Origin: Candidatus Saccharimonadales bacterium
GTDB lineage: Bacteria > Patescibacteriota > Saccharimonadia > Saccharimonadales > UBA10212
DNA: 64,000 bases
Reading direction: 5' to 3'
NCBI GenBank assembly: GCA_038245195.1
Contig: JBBRSU010000002.1
Location: 35,091 to 99,090, forward strand
The stretch's first letter is position 1. Each line of letters starts with the position of its first letter. A program made the position numbers and the translations under genes. The notes beneath the pieces were generated by a model. That model was not told where the DNA came from. It saw only the letters and a list, made by a program, of their open reading frames with translations, and searched no databases. This document shows positions 815-38,159 of the stretch, one piece after another.

Positions 815-2902
815 TTACTTGCCAGCTTTGGCGATGATGTTTTGAGTAACGTTTGGTGGAACATCGGCATAATGATCTAACTCCATAGAAGAACTAGCTC
901 GGCCCTGTGTGCTGCTACGAAGTTCGGTTGTATAGCCAAACATCTCGCCTAAAGGCACGAAGCCCGTTACTTCCTTGATCCCAACACTCAAATCTTCCAT
1001 TGATTCAATCCGACCACGTTTGGCATTTAAGCTACCGATGACATCACCCATGAAATCTTCTGGAGTGACCACTACAACTTTCATTATCGGTTCTAGAAGT
1101 ACTGGTGACGATTTTTTGACGCCTTCCTGCAAAGCCATTGAACCAGCGATTTTAAAGGCCATCTCTGATGAGTCGACATCATGGTAAGACCCGTCGTATA
1201 ACTCGGCTTTAACATCCACTACCGGGTATCCAGCTAAAACACCATTGGACATGGCTTCTTCAATACCAGATTTAACTGCCGGGATGTATTCACTTGGAAC
1301 AGAGCCGCCTTTAATACTATTGATGAATTCAAAACCTTTGCCGGCTTCGTTTTGGGACAAGCGTAACCACACATGGCCATACTGACCACGACCGCCCGAT
1401 TGACGGATAAACTTACCCTCTTGCTCAACAGCGTCTTTACGAATGGTTTCGCGATAGGCAACCTGTGGTTGGCCGATGTTGGCTTCTACCGTAAATTCGC
1501 GCTTCATTCTATCAACAATGATTTCCAGGTGTAGCTCGCCCATTCCAGAAATGATTGTCTGGCCGGTCTCGTGGTCTACTTTAATCCTAAACGTCGGGTC
1601 TTCTTCGGCTAGTCGTTGAAGAGCTAGACTCATTTTTTCTTGGTCGGCCTTTGTTTTTGGCTCAATCGCAATGCTAACTGGTGGCTCTGGGAAAGTGATG
1701 CTTTCTAGAATAATTGGATGATTGGTATCACAAAGAGTGTTACCAGTTGTTGTGCCTTTCAGGCCGACAATCGCAGCGATATCACCGGCTTCTACTTCTG
1801 TTACGTCCTCGCGTTTATCGGCTTGAAGCCGTACAATCCGCCCAACTCTCTCTCGTTCGCCTGACGAACTGTTTAAGATATAGCTGCCTGCTGTAACCTT
1901 GCCGGAATAAACTCGAAAGAAAGCCAGTTTGCCAACGAATGGGTCAGTGGCAATTTTAAATGCCAGTGCAGCAAACGGTTCGGACTCTGATGGTTTGCGC
2001 TCAATTTCATCGCCGTTTTTAGGGTTTGTGCCCCAAGTTGAACCACGGTCTAGTGGATTCGGCAAATAATCATTTACCAAATCTAGTAACTTCTCAACAA
2101 TTACTCCTCGACCGTCACCGCCGGAAACCACGAAAAACTTACCCGATAATACGGCTGTTCGAATAGCTTGCTTGATTTCAGTTTCGGACAAACCGTCTTC
2201 GCCGACTTCAAAATACTTCTCTAAAATGGTCTCGTCTTCAGCCACAGCGTTTTCAACCAATAAACTGCGATATTTTTTAACTTGATCCATCATGTCTGCC
2301 GGAATTTCAGCTTCGACTAATTCGTGGTCTGTAAAATCTTTGTAGCTATAACTTTTCAGGCTGACTAAGTCCACAACCCCTGAAACTGATTGCTCAAAAC
2401 CGATTGGAAGATGAATCGGCAATGCTCTTTTAGATAAGCGATTATGAATGCTGTCTAGGCTTTTGTAGAAATCACCGCCGGTTTGATTGATTTTATTAAT
2501 AAAACAAATTCGCGGGACATTGTACTTGTCGGCTTGACGCCAAACTGTCTCAGATTGGCTTTCCACACCCATTTTGCCGTCAAAAACCACTACAGCTCCA
2601 TCTAGTACCCTCAGTGAGCGTTCAACTTCAACTGTGAAGTCGATATGGCCCGGTGTATCAATGATATTAATTTTATGATCTTTCCAGAAACAGCTAACAG
2701 CGGCGGCGGTAATAGTGATACCCCGCTCTTTTTCTTGGGCCATCCAGTCGGTAGTGGTTTCGCCTTCATGGACTGCACCGATTTTGTGCTTTAGGCCGGT
2801 CCGATATAAGATCCCTTCAGTTGTAGTCGTCTTTCCGGCGTCAATATGAGCAATAATGCCAATGTTTCGGACGTCTTTTAGGTTGTACTTCTTCTCTGCC
2901 AT
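815..2902 (-). CDS. fusA: Translation elongation factor G
   Basis: 695 aa. G-domain motifs [14 protein letters not shown] and NKID-like NKIN are present, with full-length EF-G domain order. It sits downstream of rpsL-rpsG. Confidence 0.97.
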
Positions 2903-3111
2903 TATTTATTGTCCAACTTTCTTATTGCATTTTCCATGATGCTTGAATCTGTGTAACCCTTTCGCTTATAGCCAACATGCTTTACAGCTAGACCGCCTAG
3001 ATCAAGTGAGGCGGCCACCGACAGGGCGTCTCTGCCACTTATTTCAATTATTAATTCGCTCAGGCTGTTGTTGGGTATAATATTCACGATCTCACCCTTT
3101 TTTAAGTCCAC
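2902..3111 (-). CDS. Hypothetical 69-aa protein exactly filling the rpsG-fusA gap
   Basis: The GTG start at 3111 directly abuts the rpsG stop (3112-3114). Its TAA stop shares one base with the fusA ATG (TAATG). Amino-acid composition is not low-complexity and I recognise no family. Confidence 0.5.
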
Positions 3112-3591
3112 CTAAGTCCTAGCAAAGTGGGCGAAGGCTCGGTTGGCGTCAGCCATTCGATGGGTATCTTCTTTTTTCTTAACTGCCGAACCGGTATTGT
3201 TATAGGCATCGACTAGCTCGAGGGCAATCCGATCCTCCATACTCATCCCTTTTCGAGACCGAGCAGCTTCCACGAACCACATAGTGGTAAGGTGTTGCTG
3301 ACGCTGACCTTTTACCTCGAACGGTATCTGATAGTTTGCTCCACCAACTCGGCGAGAACGGGTTTCCAGATGTGGTTGAACATTTCGCATGGCTTGTTCA
3401 AAAACCTCTAGCGGGTTTTGGACTTTGAGCTTATCAGCAGCTTTTTGCATACCGTTGTAGACTAGTCTCTCTGATAGTTGTTTTTTGCCATCTTGCATTA
3501 CTCGGTTAATTACTTTGGATACAGTACTGCTACTATACAGACGGTCGGGTGCAGCTGGCCGAATCAAAGCTTTGGTGGTTTTACGCGGCAT
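3112..3591 (-). CDS. rpsG: 30S ribosomal protein S7
   Basis: 159 aa, MPRK...PDRLYSS...GGANYQIPFEV...AHFAR, which is canonical S7. The ATG overlaps the rpsL stop by 1 nt. Confidence 0.97.
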   Translation of the reverse strand: MPRKTTKALIRPAAPDRLYSSSTVSKVINRVMQDGKKQLSERLVYNGMQKAADKLKVQNPLEVFEQAMRNVQPHLETRSRRVGGANYQIPFEVKGQRQQHLTTMWFVEAARSRKGMSMEDRIALELVDAYNNTGSAVKKKEDTHRMADANRAFAHFART

Positions 3592-4001
3592 TATTTGGGC
3601 CTCTTAGCGCCATATTTGCTTCGGCCCTGCTTACGGTTCTGGACACCCTGTAAGTCCAGTGAACCACGCACAATGTGATATCTAACGCCAGGTAAATCTT
3701 TAACTCGGCCACCACGAACCAGTACAACGGCGTGCTCTTGGAGATTGTGGCCTTCACCACCAATGTAGGCCCAAACTTCGTGGCCATTGGTGAGACGTAC
3801 GCGAGCAACTTTACGTAGAGCTGAGTTAGGTTTCTTAGGCGTCTTGGTAGTAACCCGTACGCAAACACCGCGTTTGAATGGTGCTTCCTTTTCATAGCTA
3901 CGAGTTTTCAGATTATTAGTAACTCGAAGCAGAGCCGGCGATTTACTCTTGTCGGTGGTACTTTTACGCGGTTTTCGAACTAATTGATTGATTGTTGGCA
4001 T
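3591..4001 (-). CDS. rpsL: 30S ribosomal protein S12
   Basis: 136 aa, [12 protein letters not shown]...[19 protein letters not shown]...[15 protein letters not shown], which is canonical S12. Confidence 0.97.
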
Positions 4002-4045
4002 ATATTGTTACAGATTCCCAAATTCAAGTGTTAACTTTAGCAAAT

Positions 4046-7000
4046 TTACTCCTTAGAAGCAACCATTTCTGAACGTTGAACTGCTTCGCGCTCGTCTTCA
4101 AGCTCTTCAAGTGGCTTAGCTCCAGTACCCACCGGTATCCTTCGGCCGAGAATTACATTTTCTTTTAGGCCGTACAAATGATCAACCTTACCACTGGTAG
4201 CGGCGGCAATTAAGACTCTGGTGGTGTCTTGGAATGAAGCGGCCGATAGGAAAGAGTCGGTTGATAGTGAGGCTTTGGTTATTCCCAAAAGTAACTGAGT
4301 GTATTTAACGATGTTTTTACCAGCTTCGGCTAAATTGGTGTTGGCGTCTTCGACGGCCAGCTTGCTGACAACATCGCCAGTGATGAACTCGCTGTTCCCA
4401 GCATCCTCGATTTGAACTCGGCTGAACATCTGTCTCACGATGACTTCAAGGTGTTTATCGGCAATTGTTTGGCCTTGACTAGCGAAGATGTACAGGATTT
4501 CATTCATGATATAACGCTGCGTAGCATCAACGCTTTGCAGACGCATTAAGTCATGTAAATTAATAGAGCCATTGGTTAAACGTTGACCAGCTACGACTTC
4601 GTCACCATCTGCGACCTGCATCTGTTTAAAGCCGGGAATTTCGTAGCGCATCATGGTTTTGGCGGTAGGTGTGATTGTGATTACACCGTCTTGGACATGA
4701 GCCTTGCCAGTCATTGGTGCAGTGATTGGCTCGCTTTGGTCTTCCTGAGCGGCTACAACATCACCAAGATTAACTTCGTTGCCATCTTTGATTTGGGCAG
4801 TTCGGCCGTTGAGCTCAATTTCTATGGCCTTTTGCTTCTTTGCGGTTACCTGAGCGATATAATGATCGCCTTCTTCCCAAAGATTTACCTTGCCAGAGAT
4901 ATCTGTGAGATAAGCTTGGCCTTTAGGAATCCGGACTTCTAGAAGCTCTTCTACGCGGGTAAGGCCCTGCGTAACGTCATCGCTAGCAGTTACAGCACCG
5001 GCACGGTGCTTAGAGTCAAGTGACAGCTGAGTACCAGGCTCACCGATAGACTGAGCGGCCACAACCCCAATTGGATAATCGGAAGCTACTAGTTCTCTGG
5101 TAGCTAGATCAACCCCATAACTTTCACGGCTGACGCCCCGAGTATTAATGTTTGATAGAACGCTCTTGATACGAACCGTGGCAACCGCAGCGTCTTCGTG
5201 AATGGCTTTGGCGATTTTCTCCGTGATTAGCTCACCAGCCTTAACATGTTTCTTGACATTTTCGGCGGCAAATCGGCCCTCGAGACGATTGCCGAAGTCG
5301 ATGCCTATCGCCTCTGATTCGACTCGTCGGAGCTCAAAACCGGGGTCACCAGCGTCTTGCTCGACAGTGAACACGTCTTGGGCAACGTCTACTAAGCGGC
5401 GAGTAAGATAACCTGAATCGGCGGTACGCAAGGCAATGTCGATTAGAGACTTACGGGTACCTCTTGTGGCCGTAAAGTATTCCAGCGGATTGAGGCCGTA
5501 CTTATAGTTAGATCGAACTGGTAGCTCCATAGCTCGGCCAGTGGCATCGGCTCGAATGCCAATCATGCCAACCGAGTCTTTCATCTGGCTCAAGTTACCT
5601 CGAGCACCGGAAGCCACTGCGATTGACATGGTGTTATCTTCAGTGGCGAACTGCTCGGCTAACGCTTTTTCGACTCGACTGTCAACTTCCGACCAAGCTT
5701 CCACTGTTAAGCGATAGCGCTCGTCGTCGGTAATGAAACCGGAGGCGTATTGCTTAGAAACTTCGGTGGCATTCTTTTCGCCTTCGTCAACAATGCCGGA
5801 TAGAACCTTTAGGTCCGAGAAGTCGTCCATGCCTATAGAGATTCCAGACGCGGTGGCGTACTTAAAGCCGAGGTCTTTCAAATCATCGGCAATTTCGGCG
5901 GTCTTTTCCTGACCATAGTTTTGGTGAGTATAACTCATCACAAAATCAAGTTTCTTGTTGTTCATAGTCACATTCTGGAAAGGAAAACCTTCTGGCAGAA
6001 TTTCGTTGAACAATATTCGCCCTGCGGTAGTCTTTTGGATTTCACCACGGAATGGGGCTTCAACTCTAGTCTGTAGGGTAATCTTGTTATCATCTAGGGC
6101 TAGAATTATCTCTTCAACACCGCTGAACTGTCGATATTTGGTTTTTTCGCTACCTGGTCGCTCGTAGGTTAGGTAGTAGCAACCCAAAACAATATCTTGT
6201 TCAACGTGTAGGATCGGTGAGCCATCGGCTGGCTTAAGTAAGTTTTTATTAGCCGCCATAATGTCGCGGGCTTCGGCCTGGGCTTGATCGCTTAATGGTA
6301 AGTGGACAGCCATTTGATCGCCGTCAAAATCGGCGTTAAAACCCTTGCAGACTAATGGGTGAAGCTGAATCGCTTTACCTTCAATTAGCACTGGTTGGAA
6401 AGCCTGGATGCTCAATCGGTGTAGACTGGGTGCTCGGTTTAAAAGCACATACTTACCCTTGATGACTTCATCGAGTGCATCCCAAACAGCAGCTTCGTTT
6501 GATTCAATCATTCTAGTGGCGCTTCTAATATTATGAGCTAATTCTTGGTCGATTAATCGGCCGATTACGAACGGCTTGAACAGTTCCAGGGCCATCGTTT
6601 TAGGCAAACCGCATTGGTGCATCTTTAGTTCTGGACCGGCCACAATTACAGAACGACCAGAGTAGTCTACGCGCTTACCGAGTAGGTTCTGACGAAAACG
6701 ACCCTGTTTACCCTTTAGCATATCGCTAAGGCTCTTTAGACGGCGGCGTTGGCCGGTGGCAGCTACGGCTCGGCCAGAGCGAGTGGAATTATTATCGATT
6801 AGTGCATCGACCGCTTCTTGTAGCATTCGTTGTTCGTTTCGTCGAATAACTTCTGGGGCATTAAGCTCCATCAGTTTTTTGAGTCGGTTATTACGGTTAA
6901 TTACACGACGGTACAAGTCGTTTAAGTCGGAGGTGGCAAAACGGCCACCGGTAAGTTGAACCATCGGCCTTAGATCTGGAGGTATCACCGGTAGCACGCT

Positions 7001-7888
7001 AACCGCTAAACTACTGGGTTTAATCCCGGCCCGTTCCATACTTTCTAGCAGGCGCAAACGCTTCATAATTTTCTTTTTGCGCTGGCCCTTTGCCTCTTCG
7101 GCTTCTTTGTTCAAATCATCAATTAGTTTTAGTAAATCAACTTCTTCGAGCAACTCCTTTAGGGCTGAGCCACCCATGCCGACAGCAACTAATGCTCGTA
7201 ATTCTAACGGCAAGTTACGAAAATCGGTTTCACTCATTAATCGAAATTTTTCTAAGCTTTCGATTTGGGCATTAAAGACTTCGAACTCTTTGGCTAACTC
7301 TTCTAGCTCTTTGGTACGAGCTTCGGCTAACGCATGAACATCAGTGCCGTCAGTCTTGGCTTCGTCTTCGTAGCGAGCATTAATGGCGGTTTCAGCAGCA
7401 GTGAATTCAGCTTGGCGATCGGCCTTAATTTTGTCACGCTCTTCGATATTTACCGATTTTACGATGTAGCTGGCAAAGTAGGCCACTCTTTCAAGGTTCT
7501 TAACAGTTAAACCTAAAAGTAGGCCCATGGCACTAGGTGTACCTCGCAAGAACCAGATATGAGCCACCGGCGCGGCCAGGCTGATATGGCCCATACGCTC
7601 ACGCCGAACTATGCTCCGGGTAACTAGCTCACCGTTCTTATCAACAGCTGCTTCGCGGGAGCGAACTCCCTTGTATTTAGCGTCGTGGGGGTTAATATCC
7701 TTAACCGGGCCAAAAATTCGCTCACAGAACAAGCCATCACGTTCTGGTTTCTGGGTACGATAATTTATGGTTTCAGGTTTTGTAACTTCGCCGTAGCTCC
7801 ATTCCAAAATATCGTCGGGACTAGCAATCGCCAGCCTAACGGCATCAAAATCGGCAATATTGGTTCCACTAGTAGTATATTGACGCAT
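4046..7888 (-). CDS. rpoC: DNA-directed RNA polymerase subunit beta-prime (both Zn-site cysteine sets absent)
   Basis: 1280 aa. It has the catalytic [12 protein letters not shown] motif, [21 protein letters not shown], and trigger loop/bridge helix regions. It lies directly downstream of rpoB with a 2-nt gap. Confidence 0.98.
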   Translation of the reverse strand: [1280 protein letters not shown]

Positions 7889-7890
7889 GG

Positions 7891-10800
7891 TTAAGCCTCC
7901 TCTATGGTTTGGTTTTCTAAATCGTCGAGCTCGGGAGCGACCGTCTCTATAGTAATGCCCTCGTCGTCAGTAATGTGTAGCATATCTTCGGCTACCGACT
8001 CTTCAATCACAGCATTATCGATTACGCTCGGTAGAACGTCGATTGTCGGGATAGTTTTGGCCTCTTCTTTGATATTTTGAGCTAAGATTTCCTCAGCATC
8101 AACCATCTGATTGTTGGCTAAAAGATCAACTTTTAACCCTAAGCCCTGCAACTCTTTAACTAGAACATTGAAGCTCTCTGGAACCTTTGGCCCCTGGATA
8201 GCCGTACCTTTAATGATTGATTCGTAGGCTTTGGCTCGACCGTAAACATCGTCGGATTTGATAGTCAGCATTTCCTGCAGAGTGCTGGCAGCTCCGTAAG
8301 CCTCAAGTGCCCAGACTTCCATCTCACCAAAGCGCTGGCCACCGTTTTGGGCTTTTCCGCCCAGCGGCTGTTGAGTAACCATAGTATATGGGCCGGTTGA
8401 GCGGGCGTGAATTTTATCGGAAACCATATGATTAAGTTTGATGATGTACATACTACCGACGGTAGTTCGCTCGCTAAATGCTTCGCCAGTCCGCCCATCA
8501 TATAGCTGTTGTTTACCGTCTCGAGGTAAACCGGCTTCAACTAACAAGTCCTGAATCTTAGTAATTGGCACACCGTTAAAGGCTGGACTGGCAACTTTTA
8601 TACCAAGGGCACGGGCTGCCATTCCTAAGTGGGTCTCAAACAGCTGGCCGATATTCATACGGCTAGGAACTCCAAGCGGGTTCAAAACAATGTCTATTGG
8701 TGTGCCGTCTTCGTTGAAGGGCATATCCTCGACAGGTAATATTCGAGCGATAACACCCTTGTTACCGTGTCGGCCACCTAATTTATCGCCAACACTAATT
8801 TTGCGCATTTGTGCTACAAACACTTGTATCTGCATTATTACGCCAGCTTTTAGTTCGTGGCCATTAGCTCGGCTGAAAACTTTCACACCGACCACTTTTC
8901 CGTGGCGGCCAGTACTCATACGCTGAGAGGTATCCCGAACTTCTTTAGCTTTTTCACCAAAAATAGCCCGTAGTAACCGCTCTTCGCTAGATAATTCTTG
9001 TTCACCCTTAGGGGTAATTTTTCCGACTAAGATATCTCCTGGGTGAACTTCAGCCCCAATCCGGACAATACCGTCTTCATCAAGGTGCCGTAATGCTTCC
9101 TCTGAAACATTCGGAATATCACGAGTGACGATTTCTGGGCCTAACTTGGTTTCTCGGACTTCGGTCATATAGTCCACAATGTGGATCGAGGTTAGGGTGT
9201 CATCTTCAACTAGTTTTCGACTGAGGATAATAGCGTCTTCGAAGTTATAGCCAGCCCAGGGCATGAATGCCGTCAATAAGTCTTTTCCGAGGGCTAATTC
9301 GCCGTCGGCTATGCTCATACCTTCAATTAGCGAATCGCCGGCTTTGACTTTATCGCCACTTCCAACCACGACTACTTGGTTGATTGAACTGCCTTCATTA
9401 CTCCGGGCAAAATGTATAGGATAATAGGTTGTTTTTCCGGCTTTTTTGTAATTAACAATTACTTCATCTGCGGTGGCTTTTTCAACCACACCATCTTCTT
9501 CAGCGACGGTTAGCTGGCCGGTGTTATGGGCAACAATTGACTCCATGCCAGTTCCGACAATCGGAGACTGTGGTTTGATGAGTGGCACAGCTTGGCGTTG
9601 CTGGTTAGAGCCCATCAGTGATCGTAGGACGTAGTTTTTTTCGACAAAAGGAATTAGACCAGCACTGGAGCCGATAGTTTGGCTTTGGGCGGAGTCCATA
9701 TAAGTGACATCGTCGGCATCAACTTCGCCGGCTTCTAGGTTGGTCCGGGCACTAACTCGACCATCTTTAAAGTAGCCTTTGGTGTCGAGTTCATTACCTG
9801 CACCTGCTATAACTGAGGTCTCCTCTTCGGCAGCATCTAAATAGATGATCTGTTCGGTAACTTTTGCCTTAACCGGCCAGGTGGCTCGACTTTTGACAGT
9901 CGCTAGTCGTTTGGCCGCTGCATCGTTGATGACAGCATCGGCTTTAACAATCACTTTGCCTTTTTCATCTTCTAAATCTACCCGAGCAATGTGGCCAACG
10001 GCGTCTTTTGGTGTCACAGCGTTAATTACTTTTCGATAAGGTGTCTCAACAAAACCATACTCGTTAATTCGAGCGAAGCTAGCTAGGTTTAAGACCAGGC
10101 CAATGTTGGCACCTTCGGGAGTTTCAACAGGGCAAATTCGGCCATAATGGGTGGCATGGGCGTCACGCACTTCAAAACCAGCACGTTCTCGGCTAAGGCC
10201 ACCCGGGCCCATCGAACTTAAACGACGTTTATGAGCTAGTTCTGATAGGGGGTTAATCTGATCCATGAACTGGGACAGCTGGGAGCTAGCAAAGAATTCG
10301 CGGACAGCCGCTACTACCGGTCGAGCGTTGATTAGCTGAGCCGGAGTTACCGTTTCGATTTCGCTCATGCTCATCCGGTCTTTGGCGTTGCGCTCCATGC
10401 GTAGTAGGCCAATTCGGAATTGTCGCTGAACCAGCTCGCCGACCAATTTAACTCGACGATTGGCCAGACTGTCGATTTCATCGGCTGGGTCCTGAGTAAT
10501 ATTTAGTCTGATAATCTCGGCAATAACCGCGATTAAGTCCTCGATTCGCATTACTCGATTATCGATAGTGTTGGTGACATCTAGGTTGAGCCGTTTGTTT
10601 ATCTTGTAACGACCAACTTTCCCAAAATCAAAACGCTTAAAATTATAGAACATGTTCTCTATTAAAGAACGGGCGTTCTCAACGGTCGCCAAATCACCTG
10701 GTCGTAAGCGACGATAAACTTCAATTAAGGCTTCATTGCCGGTGGTTGTTGGATCTTTGACAAAAGTGGCATCAATGTAGTTAAGCTCGCCTTGATCGAC

Positions 10801-11427
10801 ATGCTTAAAGGAATCTTTGATTTGCTCATTGGTTAAACCAAGGGCTTTTAGAAGAGTTGTTACGGCAATTTTGCGTTTACGGTCAATCTTTACGAATAAA
10901 GCACCGTTGGCTGAGGTCTCAAATTCTAACCACGCACCACGGACTGGGATTATTTTGGCACCGTATAGGCTAGTGCCACCGTGAGGATCAGCAGTGAAAA
11001 AAACACCAGATGAGCGAATTAACTGGCTGACTACAACCCTCTCAGCCCCGTTAATTACAAAGGTGCCGCGGCTGGTCATCCAAGGATAGTCGCCCAAATA
11101 GATTTCAGATTCTTTAATTTCACCGGTAACTTTATTGGTTAATTCGATGGTAGCTTTAAGCGGGGCGTCGTAGCTAACATTGTTCTCACGTGCCTCGGCT
11201 TCAGCCATCTTAGGGCTTTCAAAATGATAGTCTTTAAAGCTGATACTTAGTTTTGTGCCGGTATAGTCATCGATTGGACTAATTTCGGCCAATAGCTCAC
11301 CCAAACCTTCATCAACAAACCACTGGAAAGAGGTATTTTGGTGTGAAACCAGGTTGGGAGGATTAATAACATCGTCTTGGTTGGTAAAGTACGTGCGCTT
11401 TGCAATAGTTGCCGAATTTTTTGCCAT
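7891..11427 (-). CDS. rpoB: DNA-directed RNA polymerase subunit beta
   Basis: About 1178 aa with conserved beta motifs (GRHGNKGV, NPLGVPSRMNIGQ, FGEMEVWALEAYGA). The ORF track starts at TTG 11436. I prefer ATG 11427, which lies 11 nt after AAAGGAG, or TTG 11430. The start is uncertain by 3 codons. Confidence 0.96.
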   Translation of the reverse strand: MAKNSATIAKRTYFTNQDDVINPPNLVSHQNTSFQWFVDEGLGELLAEISPIDDYTGTKLSISFKDYHFESPKMAEAEARENNVSYDAPLKATIELTNKVTGEIKESEIYLGDYPWMTSRGTFVINGAERVVVSQLIRSSGVFFTADPHGGTSLYGAKIIPVRGAWLEFETSANGALFVKIDRKRKIAVTTLLKALGLTNEQIKDSFKHVDQGELNYIDATFVKDPTTTGNEALIEVYRRLRPGDLATVENARSLIENMFYNFKRFDFGKVGRYKINKRLNLDVTNTIDNRVMRIEDLIAVIAEIIRLNITQDPADEIDSLANRRVKLVGELVQRQFRIGLLRMERNAKDRMSMSEIETVTPAQLINARPVVAAVREFFASSQLSQFMDQINPLSELAHKRRLSSMGPGGLSRERAGFEVRDAHATHYGRICPVETPEGANIGLVLNLASFARINEYGFVETPYRKVINAVTPKDAVGHIARVDLEDEKGKVIVKADAVINDAAAKRLATVKSRATWPVKAKVTEQIIYLDAAEEETSVIAGAGNELDTKGYFKDGRVSARTNLEAGEVDADDVTYMDSAQSQTIGSSAGLIPFVEKNYVLRSLMGSNQQRQAVPLIKPQSPIVGTGMESIVAHNTGQLTVAEEDGVVEKATADEVIVNYKKAGKTTYYPIHFARSNEGSSINQVVVVGSGDKVKAGDSLIEGMSIADGELALGKDLLTAFMPWAGYNFEDAIILSRKLVEDDTLTSIHIVDYMTEVRETKLGPEIVTRDIPNVSEEALRHLDEDGIVRIGAEVHPGDILVGKITPKGEQELSSEERLLRAIFGEKAKEVRDTSQRMSTGRHGKVVGVKVFSRANGHELKAGVIMQIQVFVAQMRKISVGDKLGGRHGNKGVIARILPVEDMPFNEDGTPIDIVLNPLGVPSRMNIGQLFETHLGMAARALGIKVASPAFNGVPITKIQDLLVEAGLPRDGKQQLYDGRTGEAFSERTTVGSMYIIKLNHMVSDKIHARSTGPYTMVTQQPLGGKAQNGGQRFGEMEVWALEAYGAASTLQEMLTIKSDDVYGRAKAYESIIKGTAIQGPKVPESFNVLVKELQGLGLKVDLLANNQMVDAEEILAQNIKEEAKTIPTIDVLPSVIDNAVIEESVAEDMLHITDDEGITIETVAPELDDLENQTIEEA

Positions 11428-11546
11428 CAAAAGCAATACTCCTTTATTAATAAATTAGTTGTCGCTAAATGCGAAGCCCACTACGTTCGGCGATGCTATT
11501 AGTTCCCCACAGCGCAAGCACCAAAGTACACTACTTCTTACGCTAC

Positions 11547-11613: not shown

Positions 11614-12243
11614 TTAGGCCGTTTTGGGAACCGATTGAGCCAGCTTTCGGCTATCAATTACTTTATCGACGAGGCCGTATTTTTCGGCCTCTTGGGCGCT
11701 CATCCAATAGTCTCTATCGACATCTGACTCTACTTTGGATAGTTTTTGGCCGGTGTTTCTGGCCAAAATCTCGTTCAATAGTTTCTTTAGGCGAATACCT
11801 TCTCGTAAATCAATCTCTAGATCGGTTATTTTTGAGCGTTGGCTACCACTGCTGGGCTGATGAATCATGACGGTGGCATGAGGTAAGATTAATCTTTTCC
11901 CTTTCGTGCCCGAACTAAGCAGAAAAGCTGCGGCACTGGCTTGTACGCCGATACCAACTGTTTGGATGTCGGGTTTAACAAACTGCATAGTGTCATAAAT
12001 TGCAAAAGCATCATAAACACTTCCACCTGGACTGTTTATATAAAAAATGATGTCCTTGTTGGGGTCTTGATTTTCTAAAAACAGCATTTGGGCCACCACT
12101 AAGTTGGCGGTATGCTCATTAACATCGTCGCCTAGGAATATAATCCGGTCTTTGAGCAAACGGCTAAATATATCGTAGGCCCGTTCCATGCGACCTTCGG
12201 TTTCAATAACAGTTGGTACTAAAGTTTGAGATTTTCTATCCAT
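11614..12243 (-). CDS. clpP: ATP-dependent Clp protease proteolytic subunit
   Basis: 209 aa. N-terminal VPTVIE...[19 protein letters not shown]. Ser (GVQASAAAF), His (IMIHQPSSG) and Asp ([10 protein letters not shown]) triad contexts are retained. Confidence 0.95.
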
Positions 12244-12281: not shown

Positions 12282-12294
12282 CCCAGAGTGCTAA
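12268..12294. promoter_or_regulatory. CIRCE-like inverted repeat (HrcA-type operator) upstream of clpP
   Basis: The plus strand reads TTgGCACTC-N9-GAGTGCTAA against the consensus TTAGCACTC-N9-GAGTGCTAA, so 17 of 18 arm positions match. It overlaps the tig stop codon and the clpP -35. Confidence 0.65.
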
Positions 12295-13571
12295 TTTTTG
12301 GTGGCGTAGTCGATAAGTTTGGCCAGGGTTTTTTCGGTAAGTAAACGTGATTGGATGTCTCTTTGATTATCAGGTTTATCTAGTTCACTTTGCATCTGGG
12401 GGTCTTGGTATTGGCCTTTTAGGAGTTGCATTCTAAGCTCTATTTCCTCAGGGGTAACCACCAAGCCTTCTTTACTAGCAATCTCGCTGAGTATTAGGCC
12501 AACTTTTACTCGCTCAAGCGCTTCTGGGTAGTGTCTTTTACGATGCTCGGCCTCATTAATCCCCTCTGAATCCAGATGTTCTTGCCAGGTTTCTCCGCGG
12601 TAAGCCAGGTTTTGCTTTTCTTGTTCCTCAAGGTGCAAGTTTTCTTCTTGAACTAAGCTTTCGGGTACTTCAATCTCAGTTTGTGCGGCAATTTTCCTGA
12701 CGATTTCGTTTTGGTAATCAATTTTGGCCTGATTCTGTTTCTCGACCAATAGCTGCTTTTTAATGTCAGTCTTGAGCTCAGCCAGGCTCTTAAAAGGGCC
12801 GCTTTTACTGGCGAGCTCATCATCAGCTTTGGGCTCCTTCAACTCGGTAACCTTGTTAACATCAACCTTAAAGCTAACTTTTTTACTCTGAAGAACGGCT
12901 ACACCGTAATTTTTGGGAAAGGTAATTTCGAACTGCTTAGTCTCTCCGGGCTTTAATCCAATCAAGTTTTCTTCGAAACCGGGTATGAAGCTTTTACTAC
13001 CAAGAACTAGTGGGTAGTCTTTGCCATCAGCACCACCAACTGGTTGGCCATTTTCATCCGAACCAACAAAATTAATGATTAGTTCATCGCCGGCTTTGGC
13101 GGCTCGTTCCACCTCAGCTCGCTCGGCCAACCTCGTTTGAAGCGACCTAATTACCCCGTTGATGTCAGCAGTAGTGACTTCTGGCTTCTTCATAGCAACT
13201 TTAATAGCTTTATAGTTAGGTAATTTAACCGGTCCCAAGATTTCAGTTTCGGCCTCAAATTCCATATTGGTATATGGCACAAATTTTTTGAGTTGAACGT
13301 TTGGTGTGGAAATTGGTCGGGCTTGTTCTTGGTCGATGGCTCGCCGATATAGCTCGTTTAAGGCATGCTCCATAAACTCGTCTAATAAGGCCTGGTGGCT
13401 AATATTTTGTTCGACTAAGTGAGCTGGAGCTTTGCCGGCCCGGAACCCTGGAACTTTAACTGTCTTAAAATGGCTGAGTACATGTTTTCGGATTGGCTCT
13501 AAGTCGCTGGCATCAGCCACCACTTTAATCACAATCTTAGTAGGGGTTTTATCTTCTCTAATTACTCGCAT
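12291..13571 (-). CDS. tig: Trigger factor
   Basis: 426 aa. It has the N-terminal ribosome-binding GFRxGKAP motif ([14 protein letters not shown]), a central FKBP-like domain and a C-terminal arm domain. The tig-clpP order is conserved. Confidence 0.93.
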
Positions 13572-15715: not shown

Positions 15716-16912
15716 TTAGTTAGATAGATTAGTTATGGCTTCAGCGAAGGCCGCTTCTTTAAGTGGCACTTTATCTTTTTGTGAGCGCTCAAAAACTTTG
15801 GCTGTGGCATCGACTAAGTATTTTTCTAGTTGCTGGTTAACCTTGTCTTCGATCCAGTGCTCACCTTTTTTATTTTGGTCCCATTCTAGGTAGCTGACTA
15901 TCACACCACCGGCGTTAGCAAGGATATCAGGGATGTCCGTAATGTTTTGTTTGTCCAAACTTTCGTAGGCCGAATATGTGACAGGCCCGTTGGCTAACTC
16001 CAAAATAATCTTTGATTTTATCTTGCTGACGTTAGTCTCATCTACGGCATTTTCTAAAGCTGCCAGAACTAAAACGTCAACATCTAAAGCTAGTAATCCG
16101 TTGTTATCGACCTTTTGGCCGGATTTGTAATCAGCCAGTTTGCCACCTTGCTTCTTATATTCATCCAGCGCACTTGCTGACAGGCCGGCAGGTTCATAGA
16201 TCCCACCGCTAGAATCAGTGGCGGATACTAATTTCCAGTTTGGATGTTCCTTTTCGGCTATCAAAGCAAAGTAAGAGCCCACATTGCCCCAACCTTGCAC
16301 CGCATAAGTTACTCCTTCTAAAATGCTTGACTTGTTAAGTATTTCTCTGAGGACGATTACCCCACCGCGACCAGTGGCGGCGTCACGGCCCAAACTGCCG
16401 CCATTACCTATACTTTTGCCAGTAAAGCTGGCCTTGGTCTTGTCGCCGCTTAAGTTTTGGTATTCGTCTGTCATCCAATCGATTATCTGGGCGTTGGTGT
16501 TAACGTCCGGCGCCGGCACGTCTTTGTCCGGGCCGATATGGTCTTTTAGCCCCCTAACGTACTTACGGGAAAGCTCCTCTAAAGCTTCTTTAGAAAGTTG
16601 GCGGGGGTCTACAGCTATGCCACCCTTGCCTCCGCCCATTGGGATGCCAACGACGGCTGTTTTAAAACTCATTAATGTTGCCAGGGCTCTAACTTCGTCA
16701 TAATCAACCTGCGGATGAAAGCGGATGCCGCCTTTATACGGGCCGCGCTTATTACTATGCTGGACGCGGTAAGCGTCGTATTTACTGCCGTCTGTCAGCT
16801 CTATTTCAAAATTATGCTCGGCATCGGTTTTAATAAGTTCTTCGATTTGCTCATCACTTAAGCCCATTTTTTTGCCGGCTTGCCGAATCAATTTACGCGC
16901 CGTATCTAACAT
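15716..16912 (-). CDS. gdhA: Glu/Leu/Phe/Val-family (glutamate) dehydrogenase
   Basis: Motifs present: GPYKGGIRFHP, the GGGKGG catalytic-Lys region, and the Rossmann segment VQGWGNVG. I trimmed the start to ATG 16912, which is preceded by AGAGGGA. The longer track ORF (to 16984) overlaps the tRNA-Leu gene. Confidence 0.93.
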   Translation of the reverse strand: MLDTARKLIRQAGKKMGLSDEQIEELIKTDAEHNFEIELTDGSKYDAYRVQHSNKRGPYKGGIRFHPQVDYDEVRALATLMSFKTAVVGIPMGGGKGGIAVDPRQLSKEALEELSRKYVRGLKDHIGPDKDVPAPDVNTNAQIIDWMTDEYQNLSGDKTKASFTGKSIGNGGSLGRDAATGRGGVIVLREILNKSSILEGVTYAVQGWGNVGSYFALIAEKEHPNWKLVSATDSSGGIYEPAGLSASALDEYKKQGGKLADYKSGQKVDNNGLLALDVDVLVLAALENAVDETNVSKIKSKIILELANGPVTYSAYESLDKQNITDIPDILANAGGVIVSYLEWDQNKKGEHWIEDKVNQQLEKYLVDATAKVFERSQKDKVPLKEAAFAEAITNLSN

Positions 16913-16942
16913 TATCCCTCTTTCTTTGTTACTAACTTCTTC

Positions 16943-17027
16943 TGGTGGGGATGAAAGGACTTGAACCTTCACGTCTTGCGACACCAGGTCCTAAACCTGG
17001 CGTGTCTACCAATTCCACCACATCCCC
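16943..17027 (-). tRNA. tRNA-Leu (anticodon UAG), type II with a long variable arm and encoded CCA
   Basis: Minus-strand sequence: GGGGATGTGGTGGAATTGGTAGACACGCCAGGTTTAGGACCTGGTGTCGCAAGACGTGAAGGTTCAAGTCCTTTCATCCCCACCA. It has a 7-bp acceptor stem and the anticodon stem-loop CCAGG-TTTAGGA-CCTGG, with a GTC-GCAA-GAC variable arm and a T-loop TTCAAGT. Confidence 0.92.
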
Positions 17028-19654: not shown

Positions 19655-20368
19655 CTAATAGGTCCGGCGTCGAGCTGCCGAGCGCGTTATCAAACTAAGC
19701 GAGTCATCGATGTCTTTTGGCTGGAACTCACCGCAGCGGTTGATAACTGCCAGTTTAATCAGCTCATCACAAAACACTGGATTATTAGGTAAAAACGGAC
19801 CGTGTAGATAGGTTCCAAACACGTTGTTAAACCTAGCGCCTTCGGTTTTATCCTTGCCGTTATTGCCATTACCCCTCTTGACTGTCCCAAGGGAAAGCTG
19901 GCCTTTGGCTAAAAATGTCTGGCCACTATGGTTTTCAAAGCCAAACAAGACCCCAAAATCAGATTTAACCATGACATTGCCAATCATTCGTTTGGTCCCA
20001 CCTATAGTTTCGGCATCGAATACGCCAATGCCTCTAACTTCAGCTCCTGTGCTGGTCACAAAGCGGTGACAAAATAGTTGGTAAGTGCCACAAATTAAAA
20101 CCATTGGGATATTGGCTTCTGCTAGTTGATGTAGAGTGTCGCCAATTCTTAAAATGTCGGCCTGAACATCAACTTGGGCCGAATCTTGACCGCCACCGCC
20201 AATGACTAAATCAATTTGGTCGGGTATTTTAGAGCCCGGATGATGGAAATGGACTTTAGGCTCAAACCCCTGCTTTTGAAAGCGCTTAGAGAGTGTTAGC
20301 ACGTTCCCATGATCGCCGTAGGTATTAAGTTCATTCGGATACAGGTGCATAATATTTATCGACTTCAT
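19655..20368 (-). CDS. gatD: Lipid II isoglutaminyl synthase, glutaminase subunit (CobQ-type GATase)
   Basis: 237 aa: LYPNELNTYGDHGN, catalytic-Cys context ICGTYQLF, and YLHGP. It overlaps murT by 4 nt. Confidence 0.88.
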   Translation of the reverse strand: MKSINIMHLYPNELNTYGDHGNVLTLSKRFQKQGFEPKVHFHHPGSKIPDQIDLVIGGGGQDSAQVDVQADILRIGDTLHQLAEANIPMVLICGTYQLFCHRFVTSTGAEVRGIGVFDAETIGGTKRMIGNVMVKSDFGVLFGFENHSGQTFLAKGQLSLGTVKRGNGNNGKDKTEGARFNNVFGTYLHGPFLPNNPVFCDELIKLAVINRCGEFQPKDIDDSLSLITRSAARRRTY

Positions 20369-21636
20369 CGACTGTCCTGTTTGGCCAGCTGCTTATGTAA
20401 AACCAGCATGGCAGTATAAGTTGCAAGTATAACTTTTTTACCCTTGGTTTGACTCAACAGCTTTAGACCTGAAATTAGATTTGGCTCAATTGTCGAAACG
20501 GAAACTTCTGAATAGCTGAGCCTAAGAGCCAGGTCAGCCGCACGTCGACCAGAAGCGATGGCAACGACTTTAGTATTTAGAGCCGAAAAATCAACGTCCC
20601 ATAGCCATGAAACGTCGCGACCATCGGCAATATTATCGTTAATGGCAATCATTAAGTTTTGTTTAGCGGCTCCGTACGAAGCCAGGGCCTGACTAAAACT
20701 AGCCGGATTTTTGACTAAAACTAGCTCGATAACTGACCCGTTGCTCAGCTTATAGGTTTCGCCTCTGCCGAATGCTAGCCTAACGTCTGCCAATTGATTT
20801 ATAAGTGTTTGGTCGCTTACTCCGTTTAGTAAGTGTCGAACCAAGGCTAGTGCCGCTGCCCCATTCAGATAATTGTGCTGTCCGGTTAGTTTTAGGCTTG
20901 TCTTATATTTTTTACCATCGATTAAATAAGTCACTAGTTGTCCGTCAAAGTCATAAAGCTCCACATCGGGTAATAGGCTATCGACAGGTTTTTGGACCTT
21001 AGAGTCAACCGAGGCTAAGTCGTAATCGCTAGGAAAAAACTTAGCTAGTCTAGGATTAACTCCAAAGTAATGTAAGTCTGCATTATTTTGTTGCTTAATC
21101 TTCTTTGCCCAGTCTAGAAGGTGTGGATCGTTAGCATTGGTAACTACTCCATTGGCAGCTTGCATGGCCGTTCCAACATAAGCCGCCACTGTATCAACTT
21201 CGCCAAACCTATCCAACTGGTCTCGACTAACATTTAGGCCAAGCACCCAGCGTGGCTTCACCTGTTTCACTAACTGCCTGGCGGTGGCTTCATCGACTTC
21301 CAAAACTGCTAAGTCATATGGTAGTTTTCCACTAATTTTTGCGTGTTGGGAGAGTGATGAAGCGATACCTCTGACCAAATTACTCCCGGTAGAATTTGTT
21401 AAGACTTTTTTGCCGTTAACTTTAAGTAAATGGGTAACAATTTTGGTTGTTGTTGTTTTACCATTCGTGCCGGTTATAATAATGACCCCGTCAGGCAATT
21501 TTTTTAACATTGAGGCCACGTAGCTTGGGAATAAACTCTCAATTACCAGGCCAGGTAGAGCTTGACCACCCGCTTTTCTAAATGATAAACCAAATTTCAG
21601 CGATTTTCCGACTAATGTGCCTGCCACATCGCGCAT
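20365..21636 (-). CDS. murT: Lipid II isoglutaminyl synthase, Mur-ligase-like subunit
   Basis: 423 aa with the Mur ligase P-loop ITGTNGKTTT and the C-terminal DUF1727 signature DGRDVSWLWDVDF. Confidence 0.9.
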   Translation of the reverse strand: MRDVAGTLVGKSLKFGLSFRKAGGQALPGLVIESLFPSYVASMLKKLPDGVIIITGTNGKTTTTKIVTHLLKVNGKKVLTNSTGSNLVRGIASSLSQHAKISGKLPYDLAVLEVDEATARQLVKQVKPRWVLGLNVSRDQLDRFGEVDTVAAYVGTAMQAANGVVTNANDPHLLDWAKKIKQQNNADLHYFGVNPRLAKFFPSDYDLASVDSKVQKPVDSLLPDVELYDFDGQLVTYLIDGKKYKTSLKLTGQHNYLNGAAALALVRHLLNGVSDQTLINQLADVRLAFGRGETYKLSNGSVIELVLVKNPASFSQALASYGAAKQNLMIAINDNIADGRDVSWLWDVDFSALNTKVVAIASGRRAADLALRLSYSEVSVSTIEPNLISGLKLLSQTKGKKVILATYTAMLVLHKQLAKQDSR

Positions 21637-36563: not shown

Positions 36564-38159
36564 CTAGCCGACAACTCGGTAGACTTCTTCAATAGTTGTT
36601 AAGCCGGCAATGGCTTTTAAGACTCCGTCGTGAAGCATGGTACGCATGCCCTCTTCTACTGCTTTGGCTTGGAGCATTTCGGTGGTGATTTGGTTTGGTG
36701 ACAAGCGAAGCAGTTGTTGAACACCATTAGTCATTTGTAGTTGTTCGCGCAAAGCCAGTTGACCAGAATAGCCGAAGGGGTTTGCGGTTGAAGCGGCAGG
36801 TTTATAAAGAGTTAGATTGTCTAGATTTGGTTTTTGAATATGTTGTGGCATACCGTCGATCACGGCTTTAATCTGAGCTTTGAGGGCCGAATCAGGCTGA
36901 TAGGCCTGTTTACTATCGGCGTCCAGGCGACGAACCAGTCGTTGAGCCATCACCAGGTGCATTGCACTGGCAAACAGCGGATTGATTCCAACCATATCCA
37001 GCATCCGGGTCAAAGCGGCTGCCGCACTGGAGGCGTGAAATGTGCTTAGTACTAAATGGCCTGTTAGAGCACCTTGCAAAGCGGTCTTAGCAGTATCTTG
37101 GTCCCTTATTTCGCCCACCATAACCACATCGGGGTCCAAGCGTAGCACCGCCCTTAGCCGTTCGGCAAAATCATGGCCCTCCAGCTCGCCCTCAACTGGG
37201 ATTTGGACTACTCCGGGTAGATTGTACTCAACCGGATCTTCTAGGGTAATTATTTTTCGTTCAGGAGTATTTAAAGTGCTAATTAATGAATAAAGTGTAG
37301 TTGTCTTACCGGACCCAGTCGGGCCAACAATTAGCACCATGCCAGTGGGGTGCTGAATAATATCATTAACCACGGCGGTTTCTTGCCCGCTCAAGCCTAG
37401 ACTACTAAGGTTCAATAGCTCTAGGTTCATATTAAACAGTCGCATCACCACGTCCATGCCGTAGACCGTTGGAACAGTTTCAACTCTAAGATTTATGGTA
37501 ACTTCCTCACCGGTCGCCATTTTATATGCTCGGCTAATATGGCCGGTTTGAGGATCTTTTTCTTGAGTCGAAATATTGGCAGCACTGGCCAAGCTGGCAC
37601 TAAGATGTCGATATTTTTCATGGCTAATATAGGCGACGGGGTGTAGCACTCCATCAACCCTAAACCGGGCCCGAATATTGTCCTTTTGGCACTCTAGGTG
37701 AATGTCGCTGGCTTTTAACTCGTAAGCTTGTTGGACCAAAAACGCCAACATATCATCGGGGCGGACTTTTTCCAGAGTTTGAGAAACTTCGTCGACAATT
37801 TTGGTTTGATCATTCCCACTGATGCTAATATCTTCGTACTCGACTTTTTTAGGCGGATCGTACAGTACCATATATTCGCGATAGCCGGTCTCAGAGATAA
37901 TTGAGAATTCTAAGCGTTGGTCGGTAAATCGACGGGTTAGGTTATTAAGCGTTTGTTGAGAAGTTGTGGTAGTTATACCGAAGTGAATATTATGTTCATC
38001 GGCAGTCAATGGAATGGCTCTAAAATTTCGTAGCTCGTCAAGGTTTAGCACGTTTTTAAAAAGTTGTTTTTGAAGTTTTGAACTATCTACATAGCTCATT
38101 CCCAAAACCGCCGCTCGATGAGCGGTGATTTGTTCTTCCTGAGTCCTAGCATCTTGCAT
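36564..38159 (-). CDS. GspE/PilB-family type IV pilus / type II secretion assembly ATPase
   Basis: 531 aa with an N-terminal GSPII_E-type domain, Walker A GPTGSGKTT, an Asp box, Walker B DPDVVMVGEIRD and a His box LSTFHA. The usual C-terminal tetracysteine positions are not Cys. Confidence 0.9.
   Translation of the reverse strand: MQDARTQEEQITAHRAAVLGMSYVDSSKLQKQLFKNVLNLDELRNFRAIPLTADEHNIHFGITTTTSQQTLNNLTRRFTDQRLEFSIISETGYREYMVLYDPPKKVEYEDISISGNDQTKIVDEVSQTLEKVRPDDMLAFLVQQAYELKASDIHLECQKDNIRARFRVDGVLHPVAYISHEKYRHLSASLASAANISTQEKDPQTGHISRAYKMATGEEVTINLRVETVPTVYGMDVVMRLFNMNLELLNLSSLGLSGQETAVVNDIIQHPTGMVLIVGPTGSGKTTTLYSLISTLNTPERKIITLEDPVEYNLPGVVQIPVEGELEGHDFAERLRAVLRLDPDVVMVGEIRDQDTAKTALQGALTGHLVLSTFHASSAAAALTRMLDMVGINPLFASAMHLVMAQRLVRRLDADSKQAYQPDSALKAQIKAVIDGMPQHIQKPNLDNLTLYKPAASTANPFGYSGQLALREQLQMTNGVQQLLRLSPNQITTEMLQAKAVEEGMRTMLHDGVLKAIAGLTTIEEVYRVVG

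Follow-up and report, generated by a model that had tools for sequence, protein, structure and literature searches.

The stretch of DNA analysed here, referred to as the window, comprises 64,000 nucleotides of contig JBBRSU010000002.1 (positions 35,091 to 99,090, forward strand) from the Candidatus Saccharimonadales bacterium assembly GCA_038245195.1. On its minus strand it carries rpoC, the gene for the beta-prime subunit of RNA polymerase (RNAP). Bacterial beta-prime has two zinc sites with four cysteine ligands each (Cys4 or C4): the N-terminal zinc-binding domain (ZBD; E. coli C70/C72/C85/C88) and a second site (E. coli C814/C888/C895/C898). In the protein encoded in the window, the ligand positions of both sites are occupied by other residues. 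An earlier reading made from the letters of the DNA, called the sequence-only reading below, had pointed to the first of the two. The features concerned, numbered from the first letter of the window, are the following:

4046-7888, minus strand: rpoC, RNA polymerase beta-prime, 1280 aa, recognised by its intact open reading frame (ORF), homology and catalytic motif
7891-11436, minus strand: rpoB, beta subunit, an ORF of 1181 aa with a single Cys, directly upstream of rpoC in a shared operon
7574-7714, minus strand: cysteine-free homologue of the beta-prime ZBD segment, residues 59-105 (E. coli 62-108)
7682-7690, minus strand: first knuckle, P67-H68-D69, in place of E. coli C70-x-C72
7634-7645, minus strand: second knuckle, V82-D83-K84-N85, in place of E. 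coli C85-x-x-C88
5351-5353, minus strand: A846, first ligand position of the second zinc site (E. coli C814), 'EQDAGD' versus 'ETDCGT'
5120-5152, minus strand: N913...S920..S923 at the positions of E. coli C888/C895/C898, where solved chains read SVLTCHSEYGVCAKCYG

When the rpoC product was compared with all PDB chains (phmmer), only beta-prime chains were found (E = 0, residues 7-1259). The homology to beta-prime extends over the full length, and relatives at 79-90% identity carry PF04997, PF00623, PF04983, PF05000 and PF04998. The catalytic Mg-binding motif NADFDGDQM is present at residues 518-526; in the clade of relatives described below its mean majority frequency is 0.956. rpoB and rpoC lie on the same strand, 2 nt apart, and the gene order rpoB-rpoC-rpsL-rpsG-fusA of the window is unchanged in relatives. 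The nearest named relatives of the protein belong to Candidatus Saccharibacteria / Saccharimonadales; an exactly identical protein is not on record.

Ligand positions of the two beta-prime zinc sites

At the ligand positions of the ZBD, E. coli C70, C72, C85 and C88, the window protein has P67, D69, V82 and N85, the same residues that the sequence-only reading had given for positions 7619-7711, which encode residues 60-90. The E. coli string quoted there matches residues 62-108 of full-length E. coli beta-prime chains exactly; thus the ligand numbering is right. The alignment of this stretch with the solved beta-prime chains 8i23_D and 7l7b_D (HMMER) is gapless, has maximal posterior probability and retains the conserved flanks. 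A frameshift or misalignment, which had been denied from the outset, is ruled out by this alignment together with the conservation of the same state across hundreds of assemblies.

The protein contains four cysteines in all (55, 426, 514 and 570), as had been counted. None of them falls on a ligand position; C4-type relatives likewise carry Cys at each of these four positions. Residues 60-95 have no Cys, so that the N-terminal Cys4 set is missing. The two knuckles, which in a zinc ribbon provide two Cys/His ligands each, read P-H-D and V-D-K-N. Ligands displaced by a few residues can be ruled out as well: residues 60-95 are free of Cys in all 379 members of the clade, and H68 lies in the middle of the first knuckle, flanked by the former ligand positions 67 and 69, and is not one of them. 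The segment is thus a cysteine-less derivative of the ribbon, with clear homology to the Cys4 form, substitution of all ligands and no insertions or deletions (indels).

Compared with the canonical ZBD, the segment has the same position, length and flanks (FGP.KD ...), and it retains the basic residues and the turn glycine after the second knuckle. It differs in the ligands, which have become P, D, V and N/E/D/K, and in a new motif, INPHD...AAVDK, that is found throughout the clade.

The second zinc site has lost its ligands, too. All four cysteines are gone, with A846, N913, S920 and S923 in their places, but the surrounding conserved segments are present and can be aligned. With both ligand sets substituted (PDVN and ANSS), the beta-prime of the window has no ligand at either of the two bacterial beta-prime zinc sites. 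It is a member of the RpoC family which fails two features usually listed for bacterial RpoC.

In the clade no member retains more than two of the four cysteines of the second site: among the 379 sequences, the number of cysteines left there is zero in 222, one in 146 and two in 11, and never three or more. The ligand positions are occupied by variable residues (A/V/D/T..., C/T/A/S/N, P/S/G/N and S/A, respectively), and the conservation of the knuckle is at the 45th percentile. To judge from this pattern the second site has decayed and its ligand positions now vary freely. A lone Cys at the position of E. coli C888 is kept by many close relatives (P0002, P0108, P0120 and others), where the window has N913 (5150-5152), and a few relatives retain two of the four. 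These leftover cysteines look like relics of a site in decay. Folding and assembly of beta-prime reportedly require the second zinc site (Markov et al., 1999).

The second site has also been lost elsewhere. In an Acidimicrobiales metagenome-assembled genome (MAG; JAKZTU010000237.1, rpoC at 3001-6753 of the locus L070) the C4 set of the ZBD is kept and the second site reads PDSS, its segments being 'EEDPFD' and PLTDDSAFGISAKSYG. This is an independent event in an unrelated phylum.

Distribution and origin of the cysteine-less state

The sequence-only reading had proposed an alignment of RpoC from many phyla and from close relatives; this placed the loss of the ligands in one Saccharibacteria clade. 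Out of 390 non-redundant full-length relatives, 379 lack the complete set of four ZBD cysteines, and their residues 60-95 contain no Cys. All of the 120 closest non-redundant proteins listed (79-90% identity) have the cysteine-less segment. When 1.84 billion cluster representatives were scanned (HMMER) with the first 145 residues of the protein, much more divergent cysteine-less clusters were found (P0123, P0129, P0131 and P0132), and every other top match was C4. Searches seeded from P0131 and P0123 returned, among the best 120 sequences each, only cysteine-less ones. Pairwise identity inside the cysteine-less set is as low as 49%. The sequences were drawn from NCBI, JGI, ENA and Logan assemblies, on contigs of up to 1.25 Mb, and some of the 90%-identity clusters hold hundreds of members.

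Outside this set the C4 state predominates. In 80 species-representative loci from many phyla, 75 were C4 at both sites, two were truncated and one, the Acidimicrobiales MAG above, lacked the second site only. All four ZBD cysteines are kept in 77 of the 80, and a 78th, truncated locus keeps the one ligand position it covers. Two loci, L001 and L003, both Saccharibacteria/Patescibacteria MAGs, are cysteine-less at both sites. Among the 600 stretches listed in the genome scan, in which one of the back-translated patterns was the universal ADFDGDQM, there were two cysteine-less species representatives.

A neighbour-joining tree was calculated from 41 full-length sequences after both zinc regions had been removed from the alignment. 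All cysteine-less sequences formed one clade in this tree (bootstrap 200/200). Its sister was a Saccharibacteria MAG which is C4 at both sites (L002; 186 of 200 bootstraps) and is 53% identical to the window protein. No intermediate state of the ZBD ligands was found among the sampled sequences. By the topology of this tree, each ligand set was lost a single time, in the ancestor shared by a large Saccharibacteria (TM7) clade. The cysteine-less rpoC is a sharp sequence signature for this clade.

These data also bear on the question of novelty, which the sequence-only reading had raised. A full-text search, with most subscription papers outside its scope, found no published description of a loss of RNAP zinc ligands in Saccharibacteria, the candidate phyla radiation (CPR) or Patescibacteria, and to our knowledge a cysteine-less beta-prime ZBD has not previously been described for RNA polymerase. 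As far as this search reaches, the claim holds. The loss is, however, the norm for a large Saccharibacteria clade and not a peculiarity of this genome.

Cys-free homologues of zinc ribbons are known from other proteins. Makarova, Ponomarev and Koonin (2001) are said to have described C-minus forms of the zinc-ribbon ribosomal proteins L31, L33, L36, S14 and S18. For topoisomerase I, cysteine-free Topo_C_Rpt repeats are described (PMC9369019). The likeness is that the Cys4 ribbon of an essential information-processing protein has become a Cys-free homologous domain under selection. However, the ribosomal and topoisomerase cases are usually zinc-switched pairs of paralogues or are scattered over many phyla, whereas rpoC is a single-copy essential gene that was changed once, in one clade. 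A further parallel is MurT, where the Cys tetrad of a zinc-ribbon-like insertion is replaced in Oenococcus, Weissella and Leuconostoc; zinc binding in MurT is itself only inferred by the authors (PMC6085368). There, too, a Cys tetrad was lost in particular lineages and the host protein was retained, and the MurT encoded in the window is Cys-free as well; but MurT is another protein and its insertion has another role, at the interface with GatD.

Remodelling of the ZBD and rival explanations

The cysteine-less ZBD is highly conserved in the clade, at 97-100% for P67, H68, D69, A81, V82, D83 and G86. The counts among the 379 sequences are:

P67: 377/379
H68: 367/379
D69: 377/379
R78: 379/379
A81: 379/379
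V82: 374/379 (the other 5 have I)
D83: 378/379
K84: 377/379
G86: 379/379

The mean frequency of the majority residue is 0.92 for segment 59-105 and 0.91 for the ribbon core (65-90), as compared with 0.745 for the whole protein; the core ranks at the 88th percentile of 26-residue windows. At the codon level, the 47 codons of the ZBD segment show 26 synonymous and 2 non-synonymous differences to L001, 23 and 6 to L003, and 24 and 7 to L081, and the third-position identity to these three is 0.40-0.47. Both the conservation and the codon differences are those of a segment under purifying selection.

What was conserved is partly old and partly new. The cysteine-less consensus keeps H68, K71, Y72, K73, V75, R76, D83, G86, V89 and T90 of the C4 consensus, together with both flanks. 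The basic face has been retained: K71, Y72, K73, R76, R78 and K84 of the window correspond to K74, Y75, K76, K79, R81 and K87 of E. coli. Of these, K74 and K87 contact the upstream non-template strand in E. coli (bioRxiv 10.1101/2020.01.02.893370), and their counterparts K71 and K84 are conserved. At the same time 16 of the 26 positions of the ribbon core, the four ligand positions included, differ from the C4 consensus, and a new conserved core has appeared, I65-N66-P67-H68-D69 ... A80-A81-V82-D83-K84-x-G86. Judged by these comparisons, strong purifying selection has acted on a remodelled ZBD whose basic face and length were kept.

Position 85, the last of the former ligand positions, carries N, E, D, K or H, in covariation with position 87. 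The two positions (window 7628-7636) swap amide and acid: N/E occurs in 216 sequences, E/N in 94 and D/N in 40, so that 350 of the 379 have one amide and one acid, and N/N or E/E never occurs. This pattern, in counts uncorrected for kinship between the sequences, suggests that the side chains of residues 85 and 87 share one structural role.

The ZBD is regarded as conserved among bacterial RNAPs, as the sequence-only reading had said, and it is the docking site of RbpA (PMC5302886). The roles in which it has been implicated include open complexes at promoters with a weak -35 element, stability of elongation complexes, hairpin-dependent termination, phage antitermination and the binding of factors such as RbpA (bioRxiv 10.1101/2020.01.02.893370; PMC5302886). 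Earlier work also ties it to salt-stable elongation complexes and the product RNA (summarised in bioRxiv 10.1101/2020.01.02.893370). An E. coli enzyme in which the four cysteines were changed to Ser lost sigma28-dependent activity but still transcribed lacUV5 (bioRxiv 10.1101/2020.01.02.893370); catalysis thus does not need the zinc of the ZBD.

The interpretation that we favour, with a probability of about 0.7, is that this is a genuine rpoC of a Saccharibacteria clade in which both beta-prime zinc sites were lost, that the ribbon folds without metal and that the enzyme is free of zinc. The common ancestor of the clade lost the Cys ligands of both sites. The ZBD then kept its length and its basic nucleic-acid-binding face and gained the new conserved core, and the second site decayed. 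In the ribbon, P67 and V82 may fill the former metal position by hydrophobic contact, and D69 together with residues 85 and 87 may supply hydrogen bonds. The ribbon could thus fold without metal and keep its role at the RNA exit channel and the upstream DNA. The enzyme is predicted to have no tightly bound zinc, and on the sequence evidence this bacterium and its clade probably transcribe with a zinc-free polymerase. As the driver, one may speculate about zinc sparing, or about the avoidance of oxidation-sensitive Cys4 sites in an epibiont with a reduced genome.

Several points weigh against this interpretation. The metal independence of the ZBD is inferred from sequence. H68, D69 and D83 are conserved potential metal ligands of the non-thiol type. 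rpoC was seen once in the 64-kb window, which was the scope of the search, with the rest of the genome outside its view. As to the driver, zinc economy is a supposition: two zinc motifs have been retained in the window, the finger C11-x-x-C14...C25-x-x-C28 of RadA and the HEXXH...E motif of an M1 aminopeptidase. Finally, the structure predictions speak neither for nor against a retained ribbon fold. The AlphaFold2 model of residues 1-145, made from 35 exclusively cysteine-less sequences, had a mean predicted local distance difference test score (pLDDT) of 44.8. A model of residues 1-1200 (127 sequences) had a mean of 72.9, with a pLDDT of 56-61 for residues 61-90. A prediction for this region had been proposed as a check on whether the ribbon fold is kept: a hairpin was placed (80-82/88-90, around the former second knuckle), but the rest of the ribbon was not recognisable.

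Of the rival explanations the strongest is that the ZBD still binds a metal, with changed ligand chemistry, through a non-thiolate site made of H68, D69, D83 and N/E/D85, possibly with E/N87. Zinc, iron and manganese are commonly bound through His and carboxylate ligands. The three fixed residues of such a site are nearly invariant (367, 377 and 378 of the 379), 350 sequences have N, E or D at position 85, and exactly one acid is always present at 85/87. However, P and V, neither of which can bind metal, have taken over two of the former ligand positions, and if the backbone was kept, H68 and D83 would, by the geometry of zinc ribbons, lie in the outward-facing middles of the knuckles. Moreover, the would-be ligands are not without exceptions: 12 sequences have F or N in place of H68, 2 have S in place of D69, and about 21 have K or R at position 85. 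We regard a non-thiolate metal site as unlikely.

Somewhat less probable still is that, in this lineage with its reduced genome, only a degenerate and mostly unfolded remnant of the ZBD is left. Its zinc-dependent functions, namely the contacts with sigma region 4 and upstream DNA, hairpin-dependent termination and antitermination, would then have been lost. The pLDDT values (below 50 at residues 32-62 and 93-99 besides the 56-61 at 61-90) would fit such a remnant, and so would the fact that, apart from the four ligands, 12 of the 22 other consensus positions of the core differ from the C4 consensus. Low pLDDT is, however, not peculiar to the ZBD. In the 1-1200 model the first 100 residues, the beta-contacting segments and the active-site region 500-533 are all low, the last below 50, presumably because the beta partner is absent from this single-chain model. 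Furthermore, a remnant would hardly be among the most conserved parts of a protein whose clade diverges to 49% identity, nor show a large excess of synonymous over non-synonymous change, no accumulated indel and retained basic residues.

A last possibility is that the gene arose from an error of sequencing or assembly, is a pseudogene, or is a second, divergent copy beside a canonical C4 rpoC. Nothing but the limited view of the 64-kb window can be adduced for it, and it is effectively refuted by the intact ORF with all catalytic motifs in a canonical rpoB-rpoC operon and by the same state in 379 non-redundant sequences from several assembly sources, in clusters with hundreds of identical or near-identical members and, across hundreds of independent assemblies, with many synonymous differences.

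A clade that naturally lacks both ligand sets is a ready-made experiment on what the metals of RNAP do. The features that cannot be spared can be read from the remodelled ZBD, namely its basic face, its length and its turn glycines, and the decay of the second site shows that zinc there is altogether dispensable. If the metal-free interpretation is true, the INPHD...AAVDK core is a new way to build, without metal, the ribbon that lines the RNA exit channel. The loss of the ligands also leads to a testable hypothesis, namely that epibiotic bacteria of ultra-small size economise on zinc or thiols. Certain relatives, whichever form of rpoC they carry, are by now open to culture and genetic manipulation. 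The case should be of interest to RNA polymerase specialists as well as for CPR/Patescibacteria biology.

Cysteine and zinc elsewhere in the window, and neighbouring genes

The proteome of the window contains 0.50% Cys. A general depletion of Cys in beta-prime can be ruled out: the counts of cysteines outside the ligand positions are similar in cysteine-less (median 5) and C4 sequences (3-10), and the conserved C55 and C426 are retained in the cysteine-less sequences.

Two further proteins of the window were found without cysteine motifs. MurT, a subunit of the lipid II isoglutaminyl synthase (20365-21636, minus strand, with a GatD-like partner at 19655-20368), has no Cys at all; the Cys tetrad of the zinc-ribbon-like insertion of the S. 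pneumoniae type is thus missing. Its residues ~173-226 do not align to solved MurT chains. The PilB/GspE-type ATPase (36564-38159, minus strand) contains a single Cys. In place of the two CxxC pairs that make up the tetracysteine motif of solved PilB chains it has 'RRLDADSKQ' and 'AASTANPFGY' (especially ~36750-36947), and the motif region is Cys-free in all of the 57 metagenomic relatives that cover it (L092-L163; 68-87% identical). The missing Cys4 motifs of MurT and PilB are consistent with zinc sparing or the avoidance of oxidation. They also qualify the statement that the organism had not abandoned zinc fingers generally. The C4 finger of RadA is indeed kept, as had been read, but the second beta-prime site, MurT and PilB have no Cys4.

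A more far-reaching conjecture, to which we would give rather less than even odds, is that a large branch of TM7, on present sampling possibly the whole class including the human oral epibionts, uses an RNAP without structural zinc. Cys4 sites would then have been shed across the lineage, the window alone accounting for two in beta-prime and those of MurT and PilB, in adaptation to scarcity of zinc or to oxidants in an epibiotic lifestyle.

Some minor observations concern beta-prime and its gene neighbourhood. Residues ~145-235 (7184-7456, minus strand) include a charged insertion of ~70-90 residues, which was modelled as a long helical hairpin (H148-177 and H184-210, pLDDT 85-90). Clostridial beta-prime chains do not have it, the alignment with them breaking at 143/212; actinobacterial chains align continuously across it. 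It has the look of an insertion in the clamp that is specific to the lineage. Downstream of rpoC, an ORF of 69 aa that matches no Pfam family (2902-3111, minus strand) separates rpsG from fusA; the start and stop codons abut. The mechanically called ORF of rpoB begins at a TTG ('LLLMAKNS...', 11428-11436, minus strand); the ATG three codons downstream is more likely to be its start. The upstream neighbours of rpoB are clpP (11614-12243) and trigger factor (12291-13571) instead of the usual rplJ-rplL. The sole Rfam match in the window is a tRNA at 16946-17027 (minus strand, 60 bits). It overlaps the 5' end of a mechanically called ORF for a Glu/Leu/Phe/Val dehydrogenase (15716-16984), and thus the true start of the dehydrogenase must lie further downstream.

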